Shown here: one piece after another, positions 2,357 through 19,460 of the stretch
Numbering within the stretch: the stretch's first letter is position 1
Layout of the letters: each line of letters begins with the position of its first letter
Assembly (NCBI GenBank): GCA_903813345.2
Contig: CAIIXF020000001.1
Location: 14,818,001-14,882,000 of the forward strand
Source of the DNA: Owenia fusiformis
Lineage: Eukaryota
DNA: 64,000 bases
Reading direction: 5' to 3'
The notes under the pieces: model-generated
The model's database searches: none
Seen by the model: the letters and a program-made list of their open reading frames with translations, nothing else
What the model was told of the DNA's origin: nothing
Made by a program: the position numbers and the translations under genes

Positions 2357-2775
2357 GTAAGTGCAGGAGTAGTGATGGGGCCATATATAGGTAAGGGCAA
2401 GAACTGGAATAAGATGTGAGGGCCATAGATACTAGGTTAAAGATTGGAATTGATTTTAACCATAGCGGAAGGCCATAGGTTAGGTTAAGGATTGGAATCA
2501 ACGTCCAGTGTCTGTATTAACTAGAGAAGGGTCGGTCACGGTTCGGTTCGGTACGATTCTCGGTTCTTGTCTCTCGGTTCGGTCGGTTCTTCAATCATAT
2601 ACTTAATAAGGTGGGCCTCATAAATTGCAATTGGTGCCACAAATATGGCAAGATAAAAAGGTGTTTCACTTTTATTTTGTATTATTAGGGGATATAATTT
2701 TATTTTCAATCTTATAAATGATCAATATGGAATGATGATAGCTGATAATCATTGAATTTTTATGGAATTAAATAA

Positions 2776-2906
2776 CTAGAATTGAACTATTTGGAGATGG
2801 CTATCAACAAGTCGCTTGCCCCGTATTAGATGGGAGGGATTTCTTTTTAAACTGGGTCTGGTTGGGTAAGACCTTTCAATATGTTTCCTCACGGCAGATG
2901 TGTTTC
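2776..2906 (-). pseudogene. hAT transposase remnant, second exon (second half of BED zinc finger)
   Basis: Minus-strand acceptor ttttcAG (AG at 2908-2907), then (G)NTSAVRKHIERSYP, matching the BED motif GNTSxLxxHLxxxHP with the last His changed to Tyr. Phase matches the donor at 10704. Confidence 0.7.
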
Positions 2907-3040
2907 CTGAAAACTTAAATCAAATCACGTGATACAAGATGGAGGGTGGAAAATAAATTTGCTCGTTCCGGGAAAAGTCCAAATTGTGCATATCTAGGAG
3001 ATAATTATACACGTTATATGGATAAATATTATATATAAAC

Positions 3041-4090
3041 CAGTGATCTCCCCAGGATTTTTTCATAGCAGGGGGGGATTTTTTAACAAGTTTCGCCGCT
3101 CGCTTCGCTCGCATGATTTTTGTGCCAATTTTTGCCGCTCGCTTCGCTCGCTATATAAACACCAATTCTCAATTAGAAAACCTTTTATTTAACAATACAT
3201 GATAATATGCTTGTAGTGTCATGACTATTCATTGTTCATTGTGTTTCCTTGAAGTCTTCTGTCCCTACATCTTCTGGGGTGCATGTCAAACCACCTCCCC
3301 CATGCTGCCTCAAAATCGAACACCTCTTCCCTTGGTCCATTTATGATAATGTTGAGGACCCTGTCCACTGTTTCTACTTTCATTCTATTCTTTAGATAAG
3401 TCTTTTTAATTTTACCCATTTTTTTTTGAATTTCCCGCATAAAGAACCGGAAGTCGAACTTCTTTATCATGACAACCATCAAAAGCATGATTTGAACATT
3501 AATTCGTTCGCAATTATAATAACTAAAAATAATACTTCATTGTCAAATTGTAGTTTTAGTCGTTTTTATGTTTGTTTTATTCCAAATTGGCGATTTTGAT
3601 GATCGGTGATCATATCATTCCGCGTTGCAGTATAGGGGTAATCTGCGCCAGGTTCAACTGTTAACTTTTTCTAATTTTCTGAACGCACGCATCAAATGAA
3701 CGATTTTGATAGGTTAGAATGTTTTGGGCGCATGCGCATACGTAGTCAAATCAAGTGATCGAACCGAACCTGGGGCAGATTATGTCGATGACGCACGATT
3801 AGTAATAGATAATTTGATTGGATATTTCGTAACTAATCATGAGTTTTGAGCCAATCAGAAGACATTTAAGATTCGGCCTTCGGAATGGCAAATCGGGAAA
3901 AACTTTTTGAAAACTTTTTGAATTTTATGTGATTTCGTCGAATATCCAGGAGAATAAAATAATGTACGTAAGTTTTGAAGTAGCGGGGCGCTTAGCAGGG
4001 CGGGCTAAGCAAGCAGGGGGGGGGAACAGGGCGGGGAAAACGAGTGAGCAGGGGGGAGCGCCATGCAATTAGATTCTGGGGAGAACCCAG
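3041..4090 (-). mobile_element. Non-autonomous hAT (hAT5-like, 5-bp TSD) inserted in the retrotransposon 5' UTR
   Basis: Imperfect TIRs CAGTGATCTCCCCAGGA / TTCTGGGGAGAACCCAG (13/17); flanking direct repeat TAAAC on both sides; GC-rich subterminal repeats (GCCGCTCGCTTCGCTCGC x2, AGCAGGGGGG); transposase C-terminal remnant inside. Confidence 0.75.
3225..3420 (-). pseudogene. hAT transposase C-terminal (dimerisation-domain) remnant, ZNF862-like
   Basis: IKKTYLKNRMKVETVDRVLNIIINGPREEVFDFEAAWGRWFDMHPRR fits the KTxxRNRL..xLxxLMxIxINGP..FDFxxAxxxW tail of ZNF862-like hAT transposases. Confidence 0.7.
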
Positions 4091-4156
4091 TAAACATACC
4101 GTTTTTGGAACAAGTGAACTTTCAAACAAGCCTGCGCTGTCTAAAGAGCATAAACC

Positions 4157-5422
4157 ATGCCACCAAAGAAAACACATGGATTTTCGAAAGACGAAATGGA
4201 GGACATATTGGATCAATATGTGCAAAAACAAAATGCCAGCATAATAGAGACGGTCAACAATGCAGTTAGAGATTCGTTGAAAGTCGAATTAGGAGAAGTT
4301 GCGAAAGCTTTGGAAAATGTAAGTGCTATTTCCACTGAGAATGCAAATGCAATAAAGACATGTAAAAATGACATTCGAAACATTGAAGCCAGGCTAACGT
4401 TGACAAATGAACAATTGGCAAACACAGAAAGTCAATTGAAATCGGCTATGATCAAACTTGAAGACAAACAATTGGAAATGGACGTCTATTCGAGGCGAAG
4501 TAGTCTCCACTTCAAAGGAATCCCTGAAGCTGAAGGTGAGAACTGTGAAAATTTGATAAAAACTTTCATAAGGGATAAACTAGGCTTAGATTCGGAAAGC
4601 ATTAAATTTGAAAGGGTACATAGGATACCCCTAGGTCCTAAAAGTAAATATAAGTATAACAGAATGATCACAGCAAAATTCAACTGGTATAAAGATCGTG
4701 AAAGTGTTTGGAACAATAGATATAAACTCAAGGACCATCAAGGCTGTTATATAGAAGAAAGCTTTCCCGCTCAGGTAGAACGAAATCGTAAGATCTTGCT
4801 CCCAGTTCTGAAATTAGCAAAGGAACAACCTAACATTAAAGCGTCCCTGATCGCTGACACCTTAGTAATTGAGGGCAAAAGATACAAAGTTCAAGACCTA
4901 CACCTCCTACCTGAAAATATAAACCCATATCTTACATCTATCCGGAGAGTAGGAGATATAATACTATTCAACAGTGCCACATCCCCACTCGGAAAGGGAT
5001 ATCCATGCTCGTTTACAGAAAAGGGCAAAATCTTTAACTCAGTGTCCCAGTATGTTGCATATCAACAAGCCATTGAATTTCAAGATGTAGATTCTGCTCA
5101 CAGAATCATGAATTGTCAAAACCCAGCAGTGTGCGACAGAATTGGCAAAAATGTGCAAGGTTTCTCACAAGCCCTATGGGGAATGAAAGAAGATAGTGTC
5201 CAGGAAAGAGGGGCAACCCTCAAGTTCAACCAGAACCCACATCTGAGAGTAGCCCTTGAAGCCACAAATGGTTCAACTATAATTGGTGAATGCAACCCAT
5301 ATGATCTCGTATATGGCAATGGGTGCAAAATAACTGATATCAAAGCAGGAAAACCTGAGGAGTGGAGTGGAAAGAATGCTGGGGGACAAATAATCCAGCG
5401 CGTAAGAGACAATATGAAGTAA
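4157..5422 (+). CDS. Retrotransposon ORF1p (421 aa): coiled coil + L1ORF1/Tnp22-type RRM-CTD + C-terminal NADAR (YbiA-like) domain
   Basis: Heptad region aa ~20-110; YSRRSSLHFKGIPE...FERVHRI...ITAKF...YIEESFP...RKIL...LVIEGKRY is the L1 ORF1 RRM/CTD pattern; aa ~268-421 has NADAR motifs LKFNQNPHLRVALEAT, ECNPYDLVYGNG and WSGKNAGGQIIQRVR. Confidence 0.9.
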   Translation: MPPKKTHGFSKDEMEDILDQYVQKQNASIIETVNNAVRDSLKVELGEVAKALENVSAISTENANAIKTCKNDIRNIEARLTLTNEQLANTESQLKSAMIKLEDKQLEMDVYSRRSSLHFKGIPEAEGENCENLIKTFIRDKLGLDSESIKFERVHRIPLGPKSKYKYNRMITAKFNWYKDRESVWNNRYKLKDHQGCYIEESFPAQVERNRKILLPVLKLAKEQPNIKASLIADTLVIEGKRYKVQDLHLLPENINPYLTSIRRVGDIILFNSATSPLGKGYPCSFTEKGKIFNSVSQYVAYQQAIEFQDVDSAHRIMNCQNPAVCDRIGKNVQGFSQALWGMKEDSVQERGATLKFNQNPHLRVALEATNGSTIIGECNPYDLVYGNGCKITDIKAGKPEEWSGKNAGGQIIQRVRDNMK

Positions 5423-6487
5423 GTTGTACCAGACGAAACATTTATTCTTTGTATTTATCAGCAAAAACTACTTGTTAGACTGAGTAGAATTATCTCTTGG
5501 ATAGCTTAGAAACAGTCCCTTTTTCAATCAAACAATTGAATATTTCTTGTTTATTATGAAATACATATATTCAAAGGGACAAATGGAGCTACAGTGGCCT
5601 GGTAATGTTAAAAAAGAGAGCAATATCATTAGCTAATCAGAAACCTAGCAGATAGTGATAAAGGACTCTTGCTGAAGACTATTGTTTACAAAATACATAT
5701 TCCTTTTAGTTTGTAATTTGCTTGTAATACATCCAGTGTACTGGAGAAATAGTTGAAAAATATTTTCTAGAATGTAACAATCTCAACATTAGATCATTCA
5801 TATAGCTCATTTCAATAGCTTTGCAGTTAAAACTTGCACTGCCTGTTTACATGCACATTACTTATGAAGGGATATTGCTGCCCTGAGATGGTCAACCGAT
5901 CGGCCAATGAAATTAGCGCTAGCTTTCTTTAAGGTAGTTGCACAATAAGCAGAAAATACATCAAATAGACTACTGGCAATATGAGATTTCAGAAAATATG
6001 ACATAAAATCTTTCATATTGTGGAATTTATGGTTCACAACTGGATCTGCACTCATAGTTAGAAGAAAGAGTCATGCTCTCTCATTTTAAATTAAGATTTA
6101 CCATGGATAATTAAGCATAAACAATTATTTTATAACATTACCGAATGTTCAACTACCTTAAGTTCTGTTTCTTCTAAAAAATGTTTGGAAATGTGTTCAG
6201 AATATGATTTTGAAAATTATGTTTCTGAAATACATGAATTATTCTGGTAATTTATGTTACCTAACAAGGTGATTTTTATTTTAAATACTAGTCTTGTAGT
6301 AAAATGCACAAAGGATGCAAATAAAGGACTTTTTCTTTTCTTGTATCAGTGAAAATAGGGAAAGGGGTATACTATAAGGGGATGTGTTGGAGGAATGAAA
6401 TTTCAATGAACACTGGAAAGCAGTTACATTTGCATTGTGTGTGCAGCGTTTACTACATAGACAAGGGGTAAGATAAAATTTTGTAGT

Positions 6488-9400
6488 GTGAACTGTCAAG
6501 GCCTTTGTGACCCAACAAAAAGAGTAGATGTCTTCAATTACTTGAAACAAAAACAAATGGATATTATATGCTTGCAAGACATCCACTCTTCTAAGGAAAC
6601 TGAAACAGCTTTTGAAAAGGACTGGGGAAACAAGGCTTTTATTAGTTCCTATAAAACCAACAGTAGAGGCGTAGGCATCTTTATAAGGGAAAATCTAGAC
6701 TATAAAATTTACAGTACAGATATTGATGTAAAGGGAAATTTTGTTATACTAGACATTGAGATAGAGGGTAGGAGATTTTCACTAGTTTCATTATATGGAC
6801 CCAATACTGATTCACCTTCCTTCTATTCAGAACTGAAAAGCAAACTAGAAACTATTGAAAATGCCTCTATGCTCTTGATGGGAGATTGGAATCTAGTTTT
6901 AGATACTGATCTCGATACCTTGAACTATAAACATATCAACAATCCAAATTCAAGAAAAAAGGTTCTAGAGCTATGTGAACAATTAGAACTATATGATATT
7001 TGGAGGGAATTAAATCCTGAGGAGAAAAAATTCACTTGGGTAAGGAAAAAACCACGTCAAATGGCAAGACTTGATTTCATTCTTGGAACAGAGGACTTTA
7101 TTAATTTAACACGGAGTTGTCGTATTTCACCGAGCTATAGATCTGATCATTGTTTAACATTGCTAACCATCGAGAACAATCTTCCAGAAAGGGGTAAAGG
7201 TTTCTGGAAATTCAATTCCTCACTACTGAAAGACCCTGTTTATATCTCTTTAGTTAAAGAAACCATCCAAAACATTAAAACTCAATACGAAATCAAGGCA
7301 GATATTTCAAAATCAGAAACTACTGCAGATCTTTCAATAAATGATCAACTCTTTTTTGAAATGCTTAAATTGGAGATTAGAGGCCAGACTATAAAATATT
7401 CTTCTCAGAAGAAAAAATCGCGAGAGAAAATTCAGCGTGATCTAGAATACAAACTTTTAGTTAAAGAAAAAGAAATAGATAATCTCATTAATAAAGAGAA
7501 ATTTCAAAATGGAATATTTGAGAAAGATATTGAAGAAAAATATGATGAGTTAGAAAAAATTAAAAGTGAAATGAAAGAATATAGAGAACACTATGTGAAA
7601 GGTCTTATGACCAGGGCAAAATTAGAATGGTACGAATTTGGTGAAAGGGCGACTAAGTATTTCAGTGGTTTAGAAAAAAGAAATTATGTAAATAAATTAA
7701 TTTGTCAGGTGGAAGTTGATGGGGAACTGATAACAGATCCAAAACTTATTCTTTTGGAACAGAAGAAATTTTACGAAAACCTTTACAAAAGTAAAATACA
7801 AAATAATGAGGAAAATAATGACTTCTTTTTAAAAAATAACAATGCCATTAAAACCTTAAGTGAAGAACAGAAACAATCTTGTGAAGGCCTTTTAACCGAA
7901 AAAGAATTGAAATTTGAATTGAAAAGTGCAAAAAATGGAAAATCCCCGGGATCGGATGGTTTTAACGTTGACTTTTACAAATTCTTTTATCCTGATATAG
8001 GAAAATACTTACTCAAATCGTTAAATGCAGCCTATACACTTGGCGAATTATCAGTGACACAGAAACAAGGGATCATAACATGTCTACCCAAGGTGAACAA
8101 AATCAGAAAATACTTTAAAAACTGGAGGCCAATCTCATTATTAAATGCGGATTATAAACTCCTCTCATCAGCCTTAGCAACAAGAATGAAGTCAGTTCTG
8201 CCGCATATTATTTCTATAGATCAAAAAGCATATCTAACGGGTCGAGAGATGTCAGAAAACACGCGTCTAGTCTATGATGTTATAGATCATCTGAATCGAA
8301 AAGGACACCGAGGGCTATTACTATTAGCAGATTTTGAGAAAGCCTTTGATAGTATCGAATGGGTATACTTAGAAAAATGTCTGAAAAAATTCAATTTTGG
8401 GGACGGATTCCTTAAATGGTTCAAGATTCTATATAATGAGTCTGAAAGTTGCGTTATAAATAATGGCTTCTTTTCAAGTTTTTTCAAATTAAAGCGTGGC
8501 TGTCGGCAGGGAGATGCCCTCTCCTGCTATGCATTCATCCTAGCTCTGGAACCTTTATGTTTAAAACTTAAAAACGACAAAGACGTTGAGGGTATTAAAG
8601 TTTATAATGAAGAAGTTCAAATGGGAATGTATGCAGATGACACTTTTGTATTTTTAGATGGTACAGCAAAATCACTAAGACGCTGCCTATGTATTTTTGA
8701 TATGTTTTATGAAACGTCAGGATTAAAGTTAAATATAGAGAAAACGTCAGCTATCTGGTTAGGTAGTAAACAAGGTTCTAAAGAAATATTATGCCAAGAG
8801 ATTCCACTTAAGTGGGAAACAAATTTCAAACTTCTTGGAATACACCTATCTTCTGATTTAAAAGATGTAGAATCTCTCAACTTTGAAAACAAAATTACTG
8901 AAATGCAAAATGTTATAAGTAGGTATAAAAGAAGAAATCTATCCTTAATGGGAAAAATTACTGTACTCAAATCCTTTGTGTTGCCGAAGGTAGTACATTT
9001 GTTCCTTGTCTTGCCAAAATTGTCAAACCCCTGCCAAACTAGAATCAAACAATTATTTACTTCTTTCATTTGGAACTCAACAGTTGCAAAAGTAAGTTTT
9101 TCACAAATTGTACAAGATTTTGACGACGGAGGCTTAAAAATGATTGATCCCAAGATCTTTGAACATTCACTCAAATTGACATGGTTGCAAAAACTTCAGA
9201 AATCTGGCACATGGCAAGACATTGCACTTAATATTTTAAATGTGAATTCAAAACGTGAACTCTTTGCATATGATTCCAAATCCTTAAAGAAAATAGAAGA
9301 AAATATTTCAAATAAATTTTGGAAAGATCTTGTTTACACATTTAGAATATACACTGAACAAAAAGAGAAAGAGGCAAAGAATGATTCAAAATTGAGTGCT

Positions 9401-10288
9401 GAACTTGCTATGTGCAACACTTGGGCAAAGCTTACAAAGAACCAAAATGTCCAAAAAATATTGAAGAATGTAAGAGTCAATGGAGAGACAATTGTACTAC
9501 AAGATATGTTTCATCAGTCAAATAGAATTCTGAATCAAGAGGAATTCAATGAAAAGTTCAATACAAACATTAATTTTCTTGATTATTTGAGTCTCAGAAA
9601 TACAATTCCTAATCAGTGGTTGAGCGATATTAAGAAAAACGGCGATAGTTTAAATAACTTTGAAAGACAAAAACAACACATAAAAAAGTTCATGGGCCAA
9701 AGTAAGATAAGTAAAATTATATATTGGGAACTTATAAAAAGTGAAGAGACAAACATAAAGTACATCACTGGTTGGAATAAAGATCTGAATCTGTTACTTA
9801 ACAAAGAAGATTGGAAAATGATCAATAGAATCAATAAAGTCAGCAATTTTGAACCAAAATTAGCTTCTTTCAATTTTAAAATTCTTCATAGATTTTTGGC
9901 CACCAACACATACTTGAAAATGTGTGGATTAGCAGAATCAGATCTGTGTACTTTTTGTAAAGTAGAACCAGAGTCAATTTGTCATCTCCTCTATGAGTGT
10001 AAAGTGATAATGGAACTCATAGTAGTCATTAAAAACTGGTTACCAGAGGAATTGACAGGACTTTGTACAAAACAGAATATTTTAATAGGACCAGTATGTA
10101 TAAATGATAGAACAATTATCCTGACAAATATGTGGAGTATATTTAAAAGATATGTGTACCTATGCAAATACTCAATGTTAAGACCTACCTTTAAAGGATT
10201 TAAAGCAAATGTAATATCTTATTGTAATATTGATAAGCAAATAGGCAGAGAAAAAAGGTGGGAAATTATGGGTACTAGATTAGATTAG
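6488..10288 (+). CDS. Retrotransposon ORF2p (~1270 aa): APE endonuclease + reverse transcriptase + C-terminal CCHC (zf-RVT-like)
   Basis: EN motifs NCQGL, CLQDIH, LYGPN, GDWN, RLDFIL, SDH; GFWKFNSSLL; RT motifs KSPGSDG, NWRPISLLNADYK, DFEKAFDS, GCRQGDALS, YADD (8630-8641), LNIEKT, KLLGI; CTFC-x8-H-x4-C. The frame is open from 6461 but has no ATG ahead of the EN domain. Confidence 0.97.
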   Translation: MNCQGLCDPTKRVDVFNYLKQKQMDIICLQDIHSSKETETAFEKDWGNKAFISSYKTNSRGVGIFIRENLDYKIYSTDIDVKGNFVILDIEIEGRRFSLVSLYGPNTDSPSFYSELKSKLETIENASMLLMGDWNLVLDTDLDTLNYKHINNPNSRKKVLELCEQLELYDIWRELNPEEKKFTWVRKKPRQMARLDFILGTEDFINLTRSCRISPSYRSDHCLTLLTIENNLPERGKGFWKFNSSLLKDPVYISLVKETIQNIKTQYEIKADISKSETTADLSINDQLFFEMLKLEIRGQTIKYSSQKKKSREKIQRDLEYKLLVKEKEIDNLINKEKFQNGIFEKDIEEKYDELEKIKSEMKEYREHYVKGLMTRAKLEWYEFGERATKYFSGLEKRNYVNKLICQVEVDGELITDPKLILLEQKKFYENLYKSKIQNNEENNDFFLKNNNAIKTLSEEQKQSCEGLLTEKELKFELKSAKNGKSPGSDGFNVDFYKFFYPDIGKYLLKSLNAAYTLGELSVTQKQGIITCLPKVNKIRKYFKNWRPISLLNADYKLLSSALATRMKSVLPHIISIDQKAYLTGREMSENTRLVYDVIDHLNRKGHRGLLLLADFEKAFDSIEWVYLEKCLKKFNFGDGFLKWFKILYNESESCVINNGFFSSFFKLKRGCRQGDALSCYAFILALEPLCLKLKNDKDVEGIKVYNEEVQMGMYADDTFVFLDGTAKSLRRCLCIFDMFYETSGLKLNIEKTSAIWLGSKQGSKEILCQEIPLKWETNFKLLGIHLSSDLKDVESLNFENKITEMQNVISRYKRRNLSLMGKITVLKSFVLPKVVHLFLVLPKLSNPCQTRIKQLFTSFIWNSTVAKVSFSQIVQDFDDGGLKMIDPKIFEHSLKLTWLQKLQKSGTWQDIALNILNVNSKRELFAYDSKSLKKIEENISNKFWKDLVYTFRIYTEQKEKEAKNDSKLSAELAMCNTWAKLTKNQNVQKILKNVRVNGETIVLQDMFHQSNRILNQEEFNEKFNTNINFLDYLSLRNTIPNQWLSDIKKNGDSLNNFERQKQHIKKFMGQSKISKIIYWELIKSEETNIKYITGWNKDLNLLLNKEDWKMINRINKVSNFEPKLASFNFKILHRFLATNTYLKMCGLAESDLCTFCKVEPESICHLLYECKVIMELIVVIKNWLPEELTGLCTKQNILIGPVCINDRTIILTNMWSIFKRYVYLCKYSMLRPTFKGFKANVISYCNIDKQIGREKRWEIMGTRLD

Positions 10289-10411
10289 ACTAGTGTGGTT
10301 AGATGCCTTAAAAAAGAATATGATGGAAAATTGTGTGATTTCTATGATATTATGAATATTGTATATGTTAATGTAACTGCTTTCAAATGTTTTCTATGAA
10401 TAAAAAAGGAA

Positions 10412-10442
<31 letters not shown>

Positions 10443-10704
10443 ATATGGATAGCACAGATGTCCTTCAGTTGGGAATAACAGTGCAGTGGGCTAGGGGGGT
10501 GTTTACCCAAATTCTCAACCTGACTTAGGGCCTGGGGTAGGACACATGAAAAAGTGTATATATCAGTCATAAAAATGTTACTATGAGCGGTAATAGAAGG
10601 CAGTTACAAGATAGGGAATGAATGGAAGTCTAATAAAGATCGTAGTCTTAATTTTTCAAATTGAAAAAAATTCACAAAAAGTTTCAATCACAAAAATTGG
10701 AAAC

Positions 10705-10866
10705 CTGCAGCGTATTTCAATGTCGTGGTGCACAACCTACATAGGGTAGACGTATTCTCATCGTAGAAACCGAGTACTTCCAAGCATCAAACTTCGGCAT
10801 TGCGGGGAAAGGCTCTATTATGGTTTTACTAGCTCTTTGCCTAAGACTTCGAAAACTGTCCGCCAT
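10705..10866 (-). pseudogene. hAT transposase remnant, first exon (first half of BED zinc finger), one frameshift
   Basis: ATG at 10866: MADSFRSLRQRASKTIIEPFPAMPKFDAWKY. Restoring one T gives (F)GFYDENTSTLCRLCTTTLKYAA(G), i.e. WKYF...CxxC...KY, ending at donor CAG|GTTT (10704). Confidence 0.72.
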
Positions 10867-11424
10867 TTTTAAAACACAAGAGTTCCCGCGCAAAATTAAT
10901 TCACGCTCGCAAATAGAATTATGTTCCCTCGAGACGTGGAAGCACAATGAAATATCCAAGGAGACGATTTTGTTACCGTATGGATCGTTTAAAGTTGTTC
11001 AATTGTCGTTTAAATGGTACTTTCATTCGCTATTTAGATGAAATAGAGCTATAATTATTTGCGCAAAACATTGGTATTCATGTTACACTGTACGAAAATA
11101 GAGTATTTCCCCGGGAATGATGCAACCGTTCTGGACTCGGTTCTTGGTGATCAGACGGTCCCAGTAGAACCGTGAGGTCAAAAACCGTGGTTAATCGAAC
11201 AGAACCGTAACCGACCCTTCTCTAGTATTAACCCTAGACGTGTGCTGAGTGAGTTTACTCGCTGTGACGTCACATTCCATGTAGACGATCAGCGAATTTA
11301 CTCCTCACTTGATTATGTTGAAATTGTTTGCAAAAAGTCAGAAGTCATTACCTTAATTAATTTGCTGCTATTATGTCACCACCAAAAGTGGTGACATATT
11401 GTTATGGTCTCCGTTTTTTGCGAC

Positions 11425-11486
11425 GGCGGTTGGCGTCCGGCGGTTGGCGTCCGGTGGTTGGCGTCCGGCGGTTGGCGTCCGGCGTC
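11425..11486 (+). repeat. 14-bp tandem repeat (GGCGGTTGGCGTCC) x ~4.5
   Basis: Directly visible tandem copies. Confidence 0.9.
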
Positions 11487-11539
11487 TGTAACAATTTCTT
11501 ACAACTTCCTATAACTTAACAAATACTGTTTAGACTGAC

Positions 11540-12730
11540 TTCAATTTTTTTCTAAATCATCTACATGTTCTCAGAAGTTCAAATCTGACTTTAGATTTGA
11601 CATTTGACCTTCAATGACCTTCTCAAGGTCAAAAAGGTCTTTTTTCAACTTGCTTCACATTGACTAAATTTTTTTTCAAAATCATCTACATGTTCTCAGA
11701 AATTCAAATCTGACTTTAGATTTGACTTTAGATTTGACATTTGAGCTTCAAATCTGACTTTATATTTGACATTTCACCTTCAATGAAAAGGTCTGTTTTC
11801 AACTTGCTTCAAATTGACTAAATTTTTTTTTCAAAATCATCTAAGTGTTCTCAGGAATTCAAATCTGACTTTGGATTTGACTTAAGATTTGACATTTGAC
11901 CCCCAATGACCTTCTCAAAGTCAAAAAAGGTCAAAAAGGTCTTTTTTCAACTTGCTTCAAATTGACTAAATTTTTTTTTCAAAATCATCTACATGTTCTC
12001 AGAAATTCAAATCTGACTTGAGATTTGACATTTGACCTTCAATGACCTTCTCAATGTCAAAAAAGGTCAAAAAGGTATTTTTTTATCTTGCTTCAAATTG
12101 ACTAAATTTTTTTTCAAAATCATCTACATGTTCTCAGAAATTCAAATATGACTTTAGATTTGACATTTGACCTTCAATGACCTTCTCAAGGTCAAAAAAG
12201 GTCAAAAAGGTCTTTTTTCAACTTGCTTCAAATTGACTAATTTTTTTTTTCAAAATCATCTACATGTTCTCAGAAATTCAAATCTGACTTAAGATTTGAC
12301 ATTTGACCTTTAATGACCTTCTCAAGGTCAAAAAAGGTCAAAAAGGTCTTTATTCAACTTGCTTCAAATTGACTAATTTTTTTTTTCAAAATCATCTACA
12401 TGTTCTCAGAAGTTCAAATCTGACTTTAGATTTGACATTTGACCTTCAATGACCTTTTCAAGGTCAAAAAGGTCTTTTTTCAACTTGCTTCAAATTTACT
12501 TAATTTTTTTTCAAAATCATCTACATGTTCTCAGAAGTTCAAATCTGACTTTACATTTGACCTTCAATGACCTTCTCAATGTCAAAAAAAGTCAAAGAGG
12601 TATTTTTTCAACTTGCTTCAAATTGAAGAATTTTTTTTTCAAAATCATCTACATGTTCTAAGAAGTTCAAATCAAACCTTCTTAAGGTCAAAAGGTATTT
12701 TCCAACTTGCTTTAAATTGACCAAATTGTT
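11540..12730 (+). repeat. Satellite array, ~136-bp unit, ~9 copies
   Basis: AAAATCATCTACATGTTCTCAG recurs at 11981, 12116, 12252 and 12388 (spacing 135-136), with more degenerate copies on both sides; units are rich in TGACCTT/AAGGTCA. Confidence 0.92.
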
Positions 12731-12947
12731 TTAGGTGGTGACATTTTGTCATGTTAATGCCTTGTTCTTCAATTGTGATGGTTTTGATAGTTGATGGTGT
12801 TGTTAACATTCACACAACATAATATTTTAACAAAAGTTAAATAGACACAATAATTAATGAAACAAAAGTATTTTTGAACTTTATATTTCAAAAATATTGA
12901 CCGGAAGTGAACATTTTTTTTTATTTTTTGGATTAAATTGAAGAATA

Positions 12948-13432
12948 CTGTAGATTGGGTTAATTTGGCACTACTTAATTTGGTGATTTTGCCATTTTTG
13001 GCATATTGGCGGCTATTTAATTTGGCGGATATGCAAAAAAAATTTAATTAACTTATGCGTTGTTTGCGAATTTTATGTTAATTTTTTCTTTTGAGGACCA
13101 CTGGCAATATTCACCACGTTTGTACATTTTTGTGAGATCATCCTTTACATTTTGCACCTCGATTGATGCTGCTACTATACTGCACTTTTCCTTTCTAGTT
13201 TTTCCCTGAGTATTAATAAGTGACTGACCAGTTCTGAGCCAATTTATGAGAGACATTTTTTCATATTTTTGGAAAAAACTAAACCGGAAGTGACCTAAAT
13301 ACACTCGACGAAATACCCTAGATAATTCCCGGGGATTCATTCTAAATTTTGGCGAAGATTTATATTGGCGAATTTTTCAATTTCGCCAAATTCGCCAAAT
13401 TAAAGCGGGTGCCAAATTAACCCAATCTACAG
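12948..13432. mobile_element. TA-TSD MITE (Tc1/mariner superfamily-like)
   Basis: Perfect 24-bp TIRs CTGTAGATTGGGTTAATTTGGCAC / GTGCCAAATTAACCCAATCTACAG; TA on both flanks; subterminal TTTGGCG/CGCCAAA repeats. Confidence 0.85.
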
Positions 13433-13596
13433 TACTCATCAAACATGAGGAAATTGATCACAATGTATGATCAGGTGATGATATAGTTTAGTTTAGTTTA
13501 TTTATTATTATTTATTTATAGTGGCCAATCTTATAATTCAATATAATATAAAAAAAATTAATGACAATTTTACCCAGGCTATGCTCTGTTTGTTAG

Positions 13597-13762
13597 GTTC
13601 CTGAAATCAGCTGGAGGCTACAATGACTGGCCCAAGTCTCGTGGAATCTACCACAATGACAACAAGACATTCTTGGTGTGGTGTAATGAGGAAGACCACA
13701 TCAGGATTATCTCCATGCAGATGGGAGGCAACTTGGGAGAGGTTTACAGTAGACTGGTAGCT
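13597..13762 (+). CDS. AK: Arginine kinase exon (NEEDH catalytic motif)
   Basis: ttgttAG acceptor, phase 2; (R)[55 protein letters not shown]; donor GCT|GTAAGT. Translated by hand. Confidence 0.97.
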
Positions 13763-14241
13763 GTAAGTAACCATCTCATAATAGGAACTGTATGCTCAGT
13801 GTCTTCAATATAGTCAATATTCTTACATTCTTTCATTATCTAGATTTGATATCCAAATATCACTTTGAAGCTAGGCTTAATATCATCATTTTTACAAGAG
13901 TAATATTTATGTTAGATAAATATTCACCATTGAGTGGGCGATTATGTAGCATCATTGTCTGTCTGTCTGTCTTTCCATCTGTCAGGGGTGTAACTTATAT
14001 AATAGTGTACTAATAGTGTATAATAGTGTGTAGTTTTCTTCAAATAGATGAATAATGATAAAATAAGAATAGAAGTTACAAATTGTAGATGATATGACAG
14101 ATGCTATTGATAAGAGCCTAACATATTTGCTTTCTTTTATTTTATTTATCATATTGCATTGTATTTATTAATTCATAAAAATGACATACATATATCCTAG
14201 TAGTAATAAGTTGGTATTGTAAATTGCATTTTTAATCCCAG

Positions 14242-14422
14242 GGAATCAAACACATGGAGAGCAAGACCAAGTTTGCTACCAACCCCAGACTGGGCTATCT
14301 AACATTCTGTCCCACCAACCTTGGAACTACATTGAGGGCCAGTGTCCATGTTAAGATCCCACTCTTTTCACAGCACAAGGACTTCAATAAGATGTGTGCC
14401 AGTTGGAATCTACAACCAAGAG
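14242..14422 (+). CDS. AK: Arginine kinase exon (CPTNLGT signature)
   Basis: cccAG acceptor, phase 0; GIKHMESKTKFATNPRLGYLTFCPTNLGTTLRASVHVKIP...NLQPR(G); donor G|GTACAA, phase 1. Confidence 0.96.
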
Positions 14423-14713
14423 GTACAATGCATTTATAAACATCTGTAGTTGTTTTGTTCTATAACTTAGCCTGCTGGGAAACTCAACATTGTTAAAGTT
14501 CTGTCGATTCTATAAATACAGAAGACATTTTTTAAGAAAAAAGACACAGATGAATATTGTAAGCTTGGAAACTTGAAGGTTTTGAAACAAACTAAATGCT
14601 CTAGGTTGCAATATAAGAGAGATGTTTAACTACTAGTATCTATTACTTTATAGATTTCATTCCACTTTTAGTGATAATCTGATTAGATGTTGTTGCACTA
14701 ATGTTTGTTTTAG

Positions 14714-14907
14714 GTATCCATGGTGAACACACAGAGTCAGTAGGTGGAGTTTATGACATCTCCAACAAGAGACGTCTTGGTCTCACAGAGTACCAGGCTG
14801 TCAAAGAAATGGCTGATGGCGTCATGAAAGTCATTGAAATGGAGAAAAAATTGGAAAGTGGTGAAAAGGTGGGCGAGAAAAAATCAAGTTCCTGTGTCCT
14901 GATTTAA
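14714..14907 (+). CDS. AK: Arginine kinase last exon, CaaX-ending form
   Basis: ttttAG acceptor, phase 1; [64 protein letters not shown]. Confidence 0.95.
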
Positions 14908-16554
14908 ATCCCTGTAGGGCTAGTATTAGTGGGTCTGAGAGACAGATTCATCAATTATAGACAACAAGTCAATGAATTTCAATGGAGATTTGGGATTTGA
15001 GACTGAAAGGGGAGCCCAGGAAATTGAAATGATCATCACTGGGAAATATGCTGATAAGGTTTAAAGACTCAGACTAACTATGCTTGGGTCCCAACTGTGC
15101 TGCATGTAATTCACATAACCCACCTGTAGTCTACACCCATCATTGAGCCTGTATTCAAGTTATGAAATGCTTAAATCAATGCAATCTTTTGTACTGAAGA
15201 ATTACATTTAATTGTCTATATTTTCATGGTTATTTGTCTTATTTATTCCATATTACTCAAATGTCTTTGTTATATGCAGCACTGGTTCTGAACCCTTTGC
15301 AAAGTGGATGTGATTTTCCCCTAGCTTAGAAAGGCGTTGCTCTTCAAGTGTTGCATGAAACAATATGTTGCTGTGTGGTATTTGAAGATTTAAATCGTAG
15401 TGTAAATTATGCTTGCAATATATTCTATTATAATTGTATATAAGATATTTAAAAGATATTTACTCTGTATATATGGAGAGCAGCGCCTTTTTGACCAAAC
15501 CTTACTAACCTGATTTACCAGTAATTAATGCAATTTAATATCATGCCATGAAAATGGAAAAATCAAGGAATTATTTTATGTCAGTATAAACACAAAAATT
15601 GATTTTTCTTCTGCATGGTGGCAAAACTATAAGAGGTTTCATTTTGGAAATTATGTTTCATAGTTAGAAGTGATTTATGGTAAGGTTTGAATATACTATA
15701 TCATGTATATGGAAATCCATGGTAATTGGCACTTGCATCCTCGTGATCTCACCTGATAGCTTTACTATTACTTATTTAAAACCATTTTCTGTTGCTTGAA
15801 CCTTTACTTATATTTTCCAACACTTTGCCGAAAACTTCACTCTTGCCTCCAGCTTTTATAAAGCTGTTAATTTGCCAAATCTCATTATTTCTGCTCCTGA
15901 AATATTGCCAAATTTCATCATATTAGAAAATATTTATTAATGGGTGAAAATGATCTGAGGTTTTGACAAGACAATGTCTTCTCCAAGTTATTCAACTGTC
16001 AATGTACTTTTATGTAGAGGGACCACCACGATTTAGGCTCATTGTAAGCTTCATGATGCATGGATTGTGTGAATTTAAGTTTGTAAATAGATATACTCGT
16101 ATAGTTAATATAGCAAGTACTTGTACAATGGCATACCAAGTAGTTTCTTGTTTTGGGGCACACGTTTTTGCAAAATATATGTTGATATGCTTTGTTTTTG
16201 TACAGATTATATATTCTCAGATACTCTTTTGTAAATTTAATGCATGTTTTGAAAACTATTTTTTATCGCATAACGGACATTTTGTACTTACAACTTCTGA
16301 AAATCTTCTATATTTTCAATAATTTACTGTTTAAATCTTATTTTTTGTATTATGTTTCCCAAACTGCCCTGATTTGACTCTACCATGAGGCATACCTCTT
16401 ACACTTCAAATGATCTCAACTGATTGAAGCTAAACCTAATGTTGTCAAATGTTACGTCCTTATGTTTCCATTATGTTGCCAAGGTAGATACCCTGGTTAC
16501 CATAATGTTGCCATGGTTACCATGATGTTGAGAGGTTTACTCTTATCCTTGCAG

Positions 16555-16650
16555 GTCCAAAGTGGACTGTCCACCCCCATGCTCCTCCTGCTAGCAGGCA
16601 TTCCCACTGTAATAGTAATAGGCGTACTCATTAAGAAGTTCTGGTCATGA
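16555..16650 (+). CDS. AK: Probable alternative terminal exon of arginine kinase encoding a C-terminal transmembrane tail anchor
   Basis: Strong acceptor ctcttatccttgcAG; phase 0 gives VQSGLSTPMLLLLAGIPTVIVIGVLIKKFWS*; in frame with the internal donor AAG|GTGGGC after 14868. Confidence 0.6.
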   Translation, partial: VQSGLSTPMLLLLAGIPTVIVIGVLIKKFWS

Positions 16651-18690
16651 TCAAGACACTATAGACTTAGTCACATGACCATCACATGACCACACACAGT
16701 GACACCTATGTTTGAGAATGAGAATCACGTGATAAGCAGTTCAACACAATGACAATTTATGATCTGAATTAGACGACAGCTCAAAACCTGTAGTCACAGT
16801 CATATGTTAGTTTGATTGATTTTTTGAGTTTGGACACTGAAGTAGGAAATAGGTTTTTGCTTTGAGGATTTTGGGATTTGATTACACTTTTCGGCAAATG
16901 CAATTTGGAAAATCTAATCTAAATTCACCTGCATGTGTAATCTTGCATGACTTATTCATCTACATTTTCTCTCATCCTTTGTTGTTCTTCCAATTGCCTT
17001 TAACATGATGAGTGATTCATGAGCCATTGCTTTTCACCCTGATTGTTTAAGCCACTTTGTGTTCTGTATTGTTTGCATTTCTCTTTATTTTGCTTATTTC
17101 CCCATAAGGGACTCCTGACTGGTTTTGGTTTGTAATGTTAAACATATCTTTGTAACAAATGATCAAATGTTAAATGTTTTTCTTATTCTTAGTTAATTCT
17201 TGAATTTAATAATAGTTTCATTTTGATTCTTTGGCCTTGTAACTTAAATTCATGATGTGTTTGCAACTTTCAGATCTAATGCTGTAAGGTCACACCCATA
17301 CCTAAAGGAGTCTAAATGTCCCACAAAACTTGTTTACTAACATAGTTAAAGCACTAGGCCTATTTATTTATTACTTATTCAAAGTAGAAAATGAAAACAT
17401 TTTAAGGAAAGATGTTTGAACTTGTGACTTTTTCAATCTTACATTTCTGTATTCTCAGTAAATTCTACTTATCATATTGGGACTTGAAAGTATGAGAGCA
17501 ATTGTAGATGAAGTATTAGGAAAGTTGTGTAATGATATTGCCAAAAATGTAGATTTTGCCTGGTCAGGAATTAGGCCATAAAATTTTGAATTATTTATTA
17601 GTGATATTAAAATATTGTGCATGTGTATGTGTTTGAAAGAGCTCGGGGCAGTGCTATTGGGATCTGTTTATGGTGAGCTTGTGCAGTCTTGAGTGTGTAG
17701 CGATTAGTGTGTCTTGTATAAGATATATGCAGCATGCATTGTTTATATGCAGGGGATATATGTACTACAGCGTGCATGATTTATGTAGCATGCAGGGGAT
17801 CAACTTGATAGGTATTTCCTGAGAGACGATAGGACATTATCTAAGGTTTTTTTAACACACCATAAATGGATAATACAGAACTTGTCTATAAAATATGTTT
17901 GCTCCAGATGTAAGGCTGTAAGGTAACTTCCTAATACAGTAAACGTTTAGCCTTACATCTCGACATGTATCCAATATACCACTACACACCCTCCTGTCTG
18001 ACCATTTGTTCATAAATTGTGTGTCATACTTAAAAATGTACCAAATTGTTTGCACTGAACAATTTTTGTACTCCTCTATTATCATATCTGAATTTGATTA
18101 AACTTAAACACATATCACTGTATTATTGGTTTGTGGTGATATAAAATCATGTATTGAATTGCGTCTTGCATTATTTCCAAAATGTTTAATTTAGTGCCCT
18201 AACATCAGTATTAGTAGTGTACTCACTGGCGAGGTAAGCTTTGTAATAGTGAAATTTTATATTTATCTCCATACAGTTAGTCTAAATTATAGGTTTACAA
18301 TAATTGCCAAACACATGGGAAACCTAGTTACACCATTCTTATTTATTGTTTATTTAAAACTATAAAAACTCCAAAATATTGTGATAGTAAAATTAGTGAA
18401 CATGCCAAAGGTATGTCTTTAATTCCATAATATACAGAATGTAAAAACACTAAAGATGTCAATAAATGTATACTCCAGACAATTTGTTGCCTTTGAATTC
18501 CTCACCAAAGAGTTATTTTTATTATTTCCAATGCTATGTACATGTTTGAATTATTATATACTGTAGTAAGTGGCTTTCACAAGGGCCTTCATGTTTTGCT
18601 TTAACACTGTTTTGTGTGGGAAATAAACAATAGAAATCAAAAATGCATGGGTTTTGTTATAGTGTGTACGAATATACAATCTCTTATAGA

Positions 18691-19217
18691 TCACACCGGA
18701 ATAGCCTAACTACGGTAAATTCAGGCACGGTTGTCACAAATGGCGAACATTACCGTCGCTTCAATGGTTTAATGACTTGGTCCTCATTTCATGGGATTTT
18801 ATCGTCGCTAATTCTGTGCATGCATTAAGCTCTTGTGACAATATATCATATGAAATCCCATTTTCGATCAAATTGGGTCGTGAATCGCCACAACATAGCG
18901 TTTTCGATATTGTCAATGACAACGGAATCTGAATTTGAGTAATTTAGAAAGATAACGGCATATGGTAATTACAGTGTCCGTTGTCCCGTTTTTCATTTCG
19001 ATTGGTTAAATTAAGACTTTATTTCGATGGTAGAACATTATTAACTGTACAATGAGTATAAAGACACTTTGATTGATTGTTGTTCCAAATTAAAGGAATT
19101 TAGTCTAGGTGCTCTATTAAACATAAAGTTCATGAAAATATAATTGAAGCGACGGTTATGTCCGCCATTTGTGACAACGGTATCCAACTTTACCGTTGTC
19201 CGGCTATTCCGGGGTGA
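18691..19217. mobile_element. Old MITE-like element with ~75-bp diverged inverted termini
   Basis: 18691-18765 (TCACACCGGAATAGCC...TTGTCACAAATGGCG...ACCGTCGCTTCAAT) is the reverse complement of 19143-19217 at roughly 80% identity. No clear TSD. Confidence 0.7.
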
Positions 19218-19460
19218 GATGAAATACTGTTTCATTATTTGACTGTGCTCGACTGTACATACCAGCTTGTACATAGGATACCAATAATTGCATGCCCAAT
19301 TCAGGCCACTGGAGACATTTTATATATATTATTTATTATATTGGCCACAGAAGAATCCCAAGGTTCTGAACTTCATGTTGCATAATCCCATTCGGTGCCT
19401 ACACGCAGCAATAGCAAAAATGCAAGAATTATAAAAAAGATGGCGAACTAGTCTAGTCCG

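Follow-up and report, generated by a model that had tools for sequence, protein, structure and literature searches.

Phosphagen kinases work best when they are fixed beside the producers and consumers of ATP, and the known modes of fixing are mitochondrial presequences and N-terminal myristoylation. The creatine kinase of the sea-urchin sperm flagellum, built of three contiguous domains, is N-myristoylated, is held at the membrane and serves a phosphagen shuttle. Alternative splicing is also known to act on C-terminal lipid anchors: Cdc42 has alternative last exons leading to prenylated or palmitoylated forms, and OAS1 p46 and ZAP-L gain a CaaX box (cysteine, two aliphatic residues and a terminal residue X) in this way. 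The present account concerns a window of 64,000 nucleotides, that is, the whole stretch analysed, from the annelid Owenia fusiformis (assembly GCA_903813345.2, contig CAIIXF020000001.1, positions 14,818,001 to 14,882,000 of the forward strand), in which lies the second half of a gene for a two-domain arginine kinase; its messenger ends either in a CaaX box or in a hydrophobic tail, depending on whether a single intron is kept or removed. Positions given below are those of the window, and all features of the gene lie on its + strand. The sea-urchin enzyme differs from the Owenia one in being a creatine kinase, in carrying its lipid at the N-terminus and in having no alternative transmembrane tail; Cdc42, OAS1 p46 and ZAP-L resemble the Owenia case in that alternative 3' exons decide the C-terminal lipid anchor, but they are not phosphagen kinases, and to our knowledge none of the three trades its CaaX box against a transmembrane helix.

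For the flagellar arginine kinase AK3 of Trypanosoma brucei, targeting to the flagellum is reported to depend on myristoylation and on the carrier Unc119 (bioRxiv 10.1101/2020.05.07.083568). Like the forms proposed here, AK3 is thus a lipid-modified arginine kinase at a specific membrane compartment, but T. brucei uses an N-terminal myristoyl group and separate genes for each location, whereas in Owenia a C-terminal prenyl group is predicted and one gene carries alternative tails. Re-addressing of a tail-anchored enzyme between organelles is described for FALDH (ALDH3A2) with its C-terminal splice variants FALDH-ER and FALDH-PO (PMC5450235); there a tail anchor is present in either variant and the difference lies in its charge, whereas in Owenia the tail anchor alternates with a prenylation box. 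By descent the nearest systems are the CaaX-ending arginine or taurocyamine-like kinases with two or three domains found in gastropods, chitons and nemerteans (Lottia, Patella, Haliotis, Gigantopelta, Littorina, Liolophura, Lineus, Tubulanus), homologous to the Owenia enzyme in lineage, multi-domain build and tail. A transmembrane tail is found in none of the CaaX kinase entries listed, and the splice switch from CaaX box to helix appears as an Owenia addition. No paper linking a lophotrochozoan arginine kinase with CaaX, prenylation, farnesylation or a tail anchor was found, and none on an Owenia arginine kinase, a provisional result from a search that left subscription journals largely outside. 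By title, the one lipid-anchored arginine kinase to come up was T. brucei AK3, which is myristoylated and not prenylated.

The two messenger forms were examined in three stranded RNA-seq runs of one study (P8), X20, X21 and X22, mapped on 13400-19400; triple counts follow this run order throughout. The last shared coding exon (14714-14868), delimited by sequence, RNA and its match to the public O. fusiformis model P0121, ends in ESGEK with an in-frame donor, AAG/gtgggc, after 14868. From this donor 18, 14 and 9 reads, with 14, 11 and 6 different start places, cross a GT..AG junction, 14868^16555, which removes a facultative intron of 1686 nt (14869-16554). Reads running through the donor are no less evident, the depth at 14913, inside the facultative intron, being 37, 18 and 14, and that across the whole intron 12-34, 9-25 and 4-10. 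The constitutive intron 13802-14203, by contrast, has a depth of 0 in all three runs, and the read-through therefore represents mature RNA and not pre-mRNA. Junction reads set against the depth at 14913 put the spliced form at about 33%, 44% and 39% of the transcripts, and the retained, CaaX-encoding form, with about 56-67% of the mRNA, is the majority.

Both forms end near 18640 and have their polyadenylation sites in common. The ends of the molecules gather at 18628-18643, a few letters past an AATAAA at 18622, with coverage that climbs towards the 3' end and drops after about 18625; the shared 3' untranslated region (UTR) accordingly extends over 16651-18643 and holds a second AATAAA at 18461. 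A sequence scan gave neither AATAAA nor ATTAAA between 14869 and 17605. The first mate lies on the minus strand in nearly all reads, which indicates a single sense transcript and no antisense one. Since the stop codon lies past the last junction in both mRNAs, neither is expected to be a target of decay triggered by the exon junction complex. The locus thus produces two mutually exclusive C-termini from one intron that is retained or spliced, on one long 3' UTR, as an earlier sequence-only reading of this DNA had proposed; both mRNAs are abundant in 3/3 runs by the comparison of junction with read-through reads, and that reading was also right about the donor, the phase-0 exon from 16555, both tails, the lack of a canonical polyadenylation signal up to 16554 and the two AATAAA hexamers.

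Some details of the RNA data stand apart from this result. The contig run X1 and other putative RNA contig runs were rejected as expression evidence, X1 being DNA-like because its depth is even over introns and it carries 0/4 of the gene's splice junctions. A weak donor is an unconvincing cause of the retention: GTGGGC departs from the consensus, but GTACAA, the donor at 14423, does so too and is fully spliced. In X20 the read-through depth, about 37 at 14913, is down to about 13 over 15410-15610 and is then higher again; the dip over 15000-15600 may reflect an early ending of some CaaX mRNAs at a non-canonical site, or a coverage bias.

When the intron is kept, reading continues through the donor for twelve codons and a stop at 14905-14907 (extension 14869-14907, supported by sequence, RNA depth and tail alignment), and the predicted protein ends in C-V-L-I, with the cysteine at position -4 and aliphatic residues at a1 and a2. 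Endings of the type C-x-x-x occur in 24 of the 120 listed relatives (matches to the last exon) and, in a search with the whole protein at the 50% identity level, in 4 of the 150 representatives. An alignment of 22 of the 24 lophotrochozoan CaaX tails with that of the window gave the common pattern (S/A)G-K-x-K-S-S-S-C-a-a-(L/I), into which the Owenia read-through fits; the region at the cysteine can also be written (K/R)-S-x-S-C-a-a-(L/I). The two-domain kinases of gastropods end in CTVL (Lottia), CVVL (Patella), CAIL (Haliotis), CVVI (Gigantopelta), CTII (Littorina), CNII (Nucella), CHVL (Biomphalaria, Bulinus and Physella) and CSLL (Candidula and Bradybaena); chiton kinases end in CSIL and CVIL, and the three-domain kinases of nemerteans in CTLL (Lineus) and, from a cluster look-up, CEIL (Tubulanus). 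The tblastn alignment of a chiton CaaX kinase reaches 14904, and all members of the close family have L or I as the final X. By alignment, then, the CaaX tail is the conserved tail, across phyla, and the preservation of motif and stop in the twelve read-through codons over this range argues for their translation. Among the variants of the three-domain kinase of Tubulanus polymorphus (P0003, P0122, P0123), X1 and X3 end in KPPSKSCEIL and X2 in KPPSL, so that a nemertean, too, has a gene model in which an alternative tail takes away the CaaX box. The CaaX form of Owenia is missing from the two members of the public cluster, P0007 and P0121; the conserved isoform escapes these models, since they treat the end of its coding sequence as intron. 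Two larger proteins, P0001 and P0002 (about 1,790 aa), combine several phosphagen-kinase domains with other Pfam domains and likewise end in a CaaX box (CVLL and CSII).

A final L or I points to geranylgeranyl transferase I, and with these two residues filling position X in the whole family, the cysteine of the predicted CaaX box would be prenylated, most likely geranylgeranylated.

When the intron is removed, the acceptor ctcttatccttgcag/GTC (tccttgcag) opens an alternative terminal coding exon at 16555 in phase 0 (16555-16650, from sequence, RNA and the end of P0121), which encodes VQSGLSTP-MLLLLAGIPTVIVIGVLI-KKFWS and a stop at 16648-16650, the product being VQSGLSTPMLLLLAGIPTVIVIGVLIKKFWS. 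This tail of 31 residues consists mainly of a very hydrophobic 18-residue helix, MLLLLAGIPTVIVIGVLI, followed by KKFWS (five residues, charge +2). The Kyte-Doolittle grand average of hydropathy (GRAVY) of the helix is 2.79; it drops to 2.56 when the preceding Pro is counted in, and to 2.40 when Thr-Pro is. A single predicted helix at the C-terminus, a short tail behind it, a protein without signal peptide and a spliced mRNA that is present are features expected of a tail-anchored protein, and the earlier description of this tail as a short hydrophobic run with a basic end was accurate. The N-terminus of P0121, MADERYDEYVKK..., is hydrophilic and without a hydrophobic signal peptide, as judged by eye from its start MADERYDEYVKKLEENESKS; a tail-anchor topology is therefore expected, and not attachment by glycosylphosphatidylinositol (GPI) or secretion. 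As a chance control, every AG of the + strand of the window was taken as a phase-0 acceptor, and a peptide was counted as tail-anchor-like if it had 20-60 residues and an 18-residue window with a GRAVY of at least 2.5 ending at most 8 residues from the stop. Such peptides followed 3 of 3289 AG sites, and 1 of 170 between 14908 and 18640, namely the 16555 exon itself. The exon (96 nt) has a G+C content of 49%, against 33% in the flanks on both sides. The tail-anchor form is already public, as P0121 ends in the tail-anchor peptide.

The data show two mRNAs in measurable shares, a CaaX tail conserved across phyla and a spliced tail with the anatomy of a tail anchor. They are best explained, with fair though not high confidence, by a two-domain arginine kinase in which a splice choice in the last coding exon decides the C-terminus. 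One weakly committed intron in that exon would act as the anchor choice. If it is kept, translation would run through the donor to the CaaX end, homologous to the tails of gastropod, chiton and nemertean two- and three-domain kinases, and the enzyme would be held by a prenyl anchor, peripherally and reversibly, at the cytosolic face of a membrane. If it is spliced out, the CaaX codons would be lost and replaced by the 31-residue tail, and the protein would be inserted post-translationally as a tail anchor, with the kinase on the cytosolic side, in the endoplasmic reticulum (ER) or the mitochondrial outer membrane. We infer lipidation, insertion, the target membranes and a local ATP-buffering role alike; buffering of ATP at two membranes is a reasonable suggestion by analogy with lipid-anchored flagellar kinases. 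That one gene supplies both ends of a phosphoarginine shuttle, as the sequence-only reading had imagined, is pure inference.

The choice of membrane for the spliced form can be narrowed by the rules worked out in mammalian cells. According to Costello et al. 2017 (PMC5450235), peroxisomal tail anchors require a highly positive tail: lowering the tail charge of ACBD5 from +4.9 to +2.9 sent the protein to mitochondria, and to +0.9 to the ER, and a transmembrane-domain GRAVY of 2.4 was already counted as 'highly hydrophobic'. By these rules, as far as they hold outside mammalian cells, the Owenia tail (GRAVY 2.79, charge +2) would possibly be directed to the ER or to the outer mitochondrial membrane, and a peroxisomal destination is unlikely. 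The earlier suggestion of the mitochondrial outer membrane or peroxisomes hence keeps its first half as a possibility, loses its second as unlikely, and had omitted the ER.

Several observations weigh against a functional pair of anchors. Both tails are known here at the level of RNA and sequence, and all three RNA runs come from a single study. RNA with a retained intron can be detained in the nucleus. For the CaaX form, geranylgeranylation more typically goes with L than with I as X, and ahead of the cysteine lie only two or three lysines together with a glutamate, and no further cysteine, so that targeting to the plasma membrane is not implied. Ahead of both anchors, the A6 stretch 14845-14850 in the MEKKLE codons has one additional A (after 14844) in 12/57, 14/37 and 7/21 RNA reads and nowhere in the contig depth of X1. 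With the frame so shifted the protein would read MEKKIGKW* and stop short of both anchors, and some transcripts or alleles may thus be tail-less. An allele, a close paralogue or slippage could be its source. For the tail-anchor form, a hydrophobic C-terminus occurs in 0 of the 120 listed relatives and in 0 of the 150 at 50% identity. Searches with the tail gave no match at E<=10, neither for a 40-aa reference against proteins of 71-2000 aa (47 candidates) nor for residues 749-788 of P0121 among proteins 30-432 aa long (18 candidates); these negatives are weak, as the searches cover cluster representatives only (P0121 itself is hidden behind P0007) and no other oweniid. The exon 16555-16650 may accordingly be a young exonisation with little function, and it may be lineage-specific or simply unannotated elsewhere. 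Of the conservation that could be looked for in relatives, the CaaX tail is thus kept across phyla, but the frame 16555-16650 appears in no relative searched.

The rival explanation that survives best takes up these last points: only the CaaX form would matter, and the 16555 exon would be a lineage-specific exonisation of the 3' UTR with a neutral, unstable or mislocalised product. The lack of a hydrophobic tail among the relatives agrees with it, as do the conserved state of the CaaX box and the majority share of the retained form. Against it, the spliced junction accounts for roughly a third to more than two fifths of the transcripts in 3/3 runs, a large share if it were noise; G+C is more frequent in the exon than in its surroundings (0.49 vs 0.33), a clean helix with KK and a stop follows just 3 of the 3289 AG sites, and the public annotation picked precisely the tail-anchor form. 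With these points counted, an account by the CaaX form alone is rather unlikely, though it deserves to be taken seriously. The converse, that only the tail-anchor form is translated while the read-through RNA is detained or incompletely spliced and its CaaX-like codons are a relic, is very improbable. Donor 14868 is indeed used by the public models, and retained-intron RNAs are often nuclear, but K-S-S-S-C-a-a-X and its stop are kept in alignment with gastropod, chiton and nemertean tails, which needs selection on translation, and the depth of 0 in the gene's other introns indicates that splicing is otherwise complete. Small residues (S, G, S, T) ahead of the C-terminal hydrophobic run might recall a GPI-attachment or secretory signal, a reading rejected as scarcely credible because P0121 has no signal peptide at its hydrophilic N-terminus, and at odds also with an enzyme that uses cytosolic ATP and with the KKFWS that follows the helix.

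The choice between two C-terminal anchors in one arginine kinase, the preferred explanation, can be extended into a broader and more tentative picture, possible but short of an even chance, in which an old class of prenylated multi-domain arginine kinases exists in lophotrochozoans and Owenia has gained the splice switch between prenyl and tail anchor, serving two membranes in a phosphoarginine circuit. If so, the same enzyme would sit, for example, on the ciliary or plasma membrane in one form and on the ER or mitochondrial outer membrane in the other, with no need for separate isoenzyme genes, and the CaaX tail common to annelid, gastropod, chiton and nemertean kinases would constitute a third, widespread mode of fixing. 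A splice switch between prenyl and transmembrane anchor within one gene would be an unusual design for re-addressing an enzyme. The less expected part of these results is the conserved CaaX form with its wide family, the tail-anchor form being already annotated.

The identity of the gene rests on its match to public proteins. The last shared exon matches the O. fusiformis protein P0007 (98% identity), in whose cluster P0121, a model of 788 aa, carries the UniRef name arginine kinase. A scripted search for GT-AG exons returned a single solution, in which the exon set of the window, including 16555-16650, matches P0121 residues 403-788 exactly. The domain profile of P0121 shows PF00217 (E 2.6e-153) and PF02807 (E 6.1e-49), each in two stretches, with an acidic Ala/Pro/Glu-rich linker joining the two kinase domains; the second PF02807 and PF00217 set is the part encoded in the window. 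The window gene is hence the second half of a two-domain annelid arginine kinase gene, domain 1 lying upstream of the window, and the molluscan placement in the sequence-only reading has to be given up. The active-site stretch FCPTNLGTTLRASVH, read in exon 14242-14422, fits the reactive-cysteine motif of phosphagen kinases, C-P-(S/T)-N-(L/I)-G-T. Database names of the relatives vary between arginine kinase and taurocyamine kinase-like, and the protein is assigned to the arginine-kinase type by PF02807, PF00217 and the active-site motif, with arginine as its putative substrate.

The exons upstream of the splice choice were all placed by their match to P0121. The first in the window, 1024-1174, holds the start of domain 2 (CSLSGDDMIKILV...) and is preceded by an acceptor, ttcag, which marks it as an internal exon. 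It is followed by 1579-1841, ending in PPTIKTE, and by 2208-2356, ending in EDHFLFNDSD. An intron of 11.2 kb (2357-13596) separates the latter from exon 13597-13762, and loose read ends before 13595 carry the end of exon 2208-2356 in 42, 19 and 18 reads. The junction 13762^14242 is covered by 42, 24 and 15 reads and leads to exon 14242-14422, from which 14422^14714, with 27, 14 and 29 reads, reaches the last shared exon. A candidate third terminal exon lies at 17274-17279: the public model P0007 is tail-less and ends in ESGEKI, which is compatible with an acceptor at 17272-17273 (ctttcag) followed by ATC TAA, and the link between the two would account for ESGEKI*. The corresponding junction, 14868^17274, stays below 3 reads in each of X20, X21 and X22.

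The 11.2-kb intron contains repeats of its own. An element resembling a long interspersed nuclear element (LINE) occupies 4154-10288 on the sense strand with two long open frames, one of 1275 aa with endonuclease, reverse transcriptase and zf-RVT domains, the other, upstream, of 422 aa with a NADAR domain (E 2.4e-26), which is unusual for the first open frame of a LINE. Further downstream, a tandem array at 11878-12673 comprises six copies of a 136-bp unit with 90% matches, seen as repeated HLTFNDLLKVKKGQKG frames. On either side of the last exons, the depth of X1 rises from about 14-20 to about 2,100 at 13400-13600 and to 20,000-64,000 at 18626-19228, and in both places the RNA reads map to either strand and show numerous odd joints; the two segments are high-copy repeats flanking the last exons and the 3' end of the gene. 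Within the 3' UTR, 12 reads of X20 and 22 of X21 match from 17584 onward and carry unrelated letters before it, with no AG at the break, which is probably a structural variant between haplotypes.

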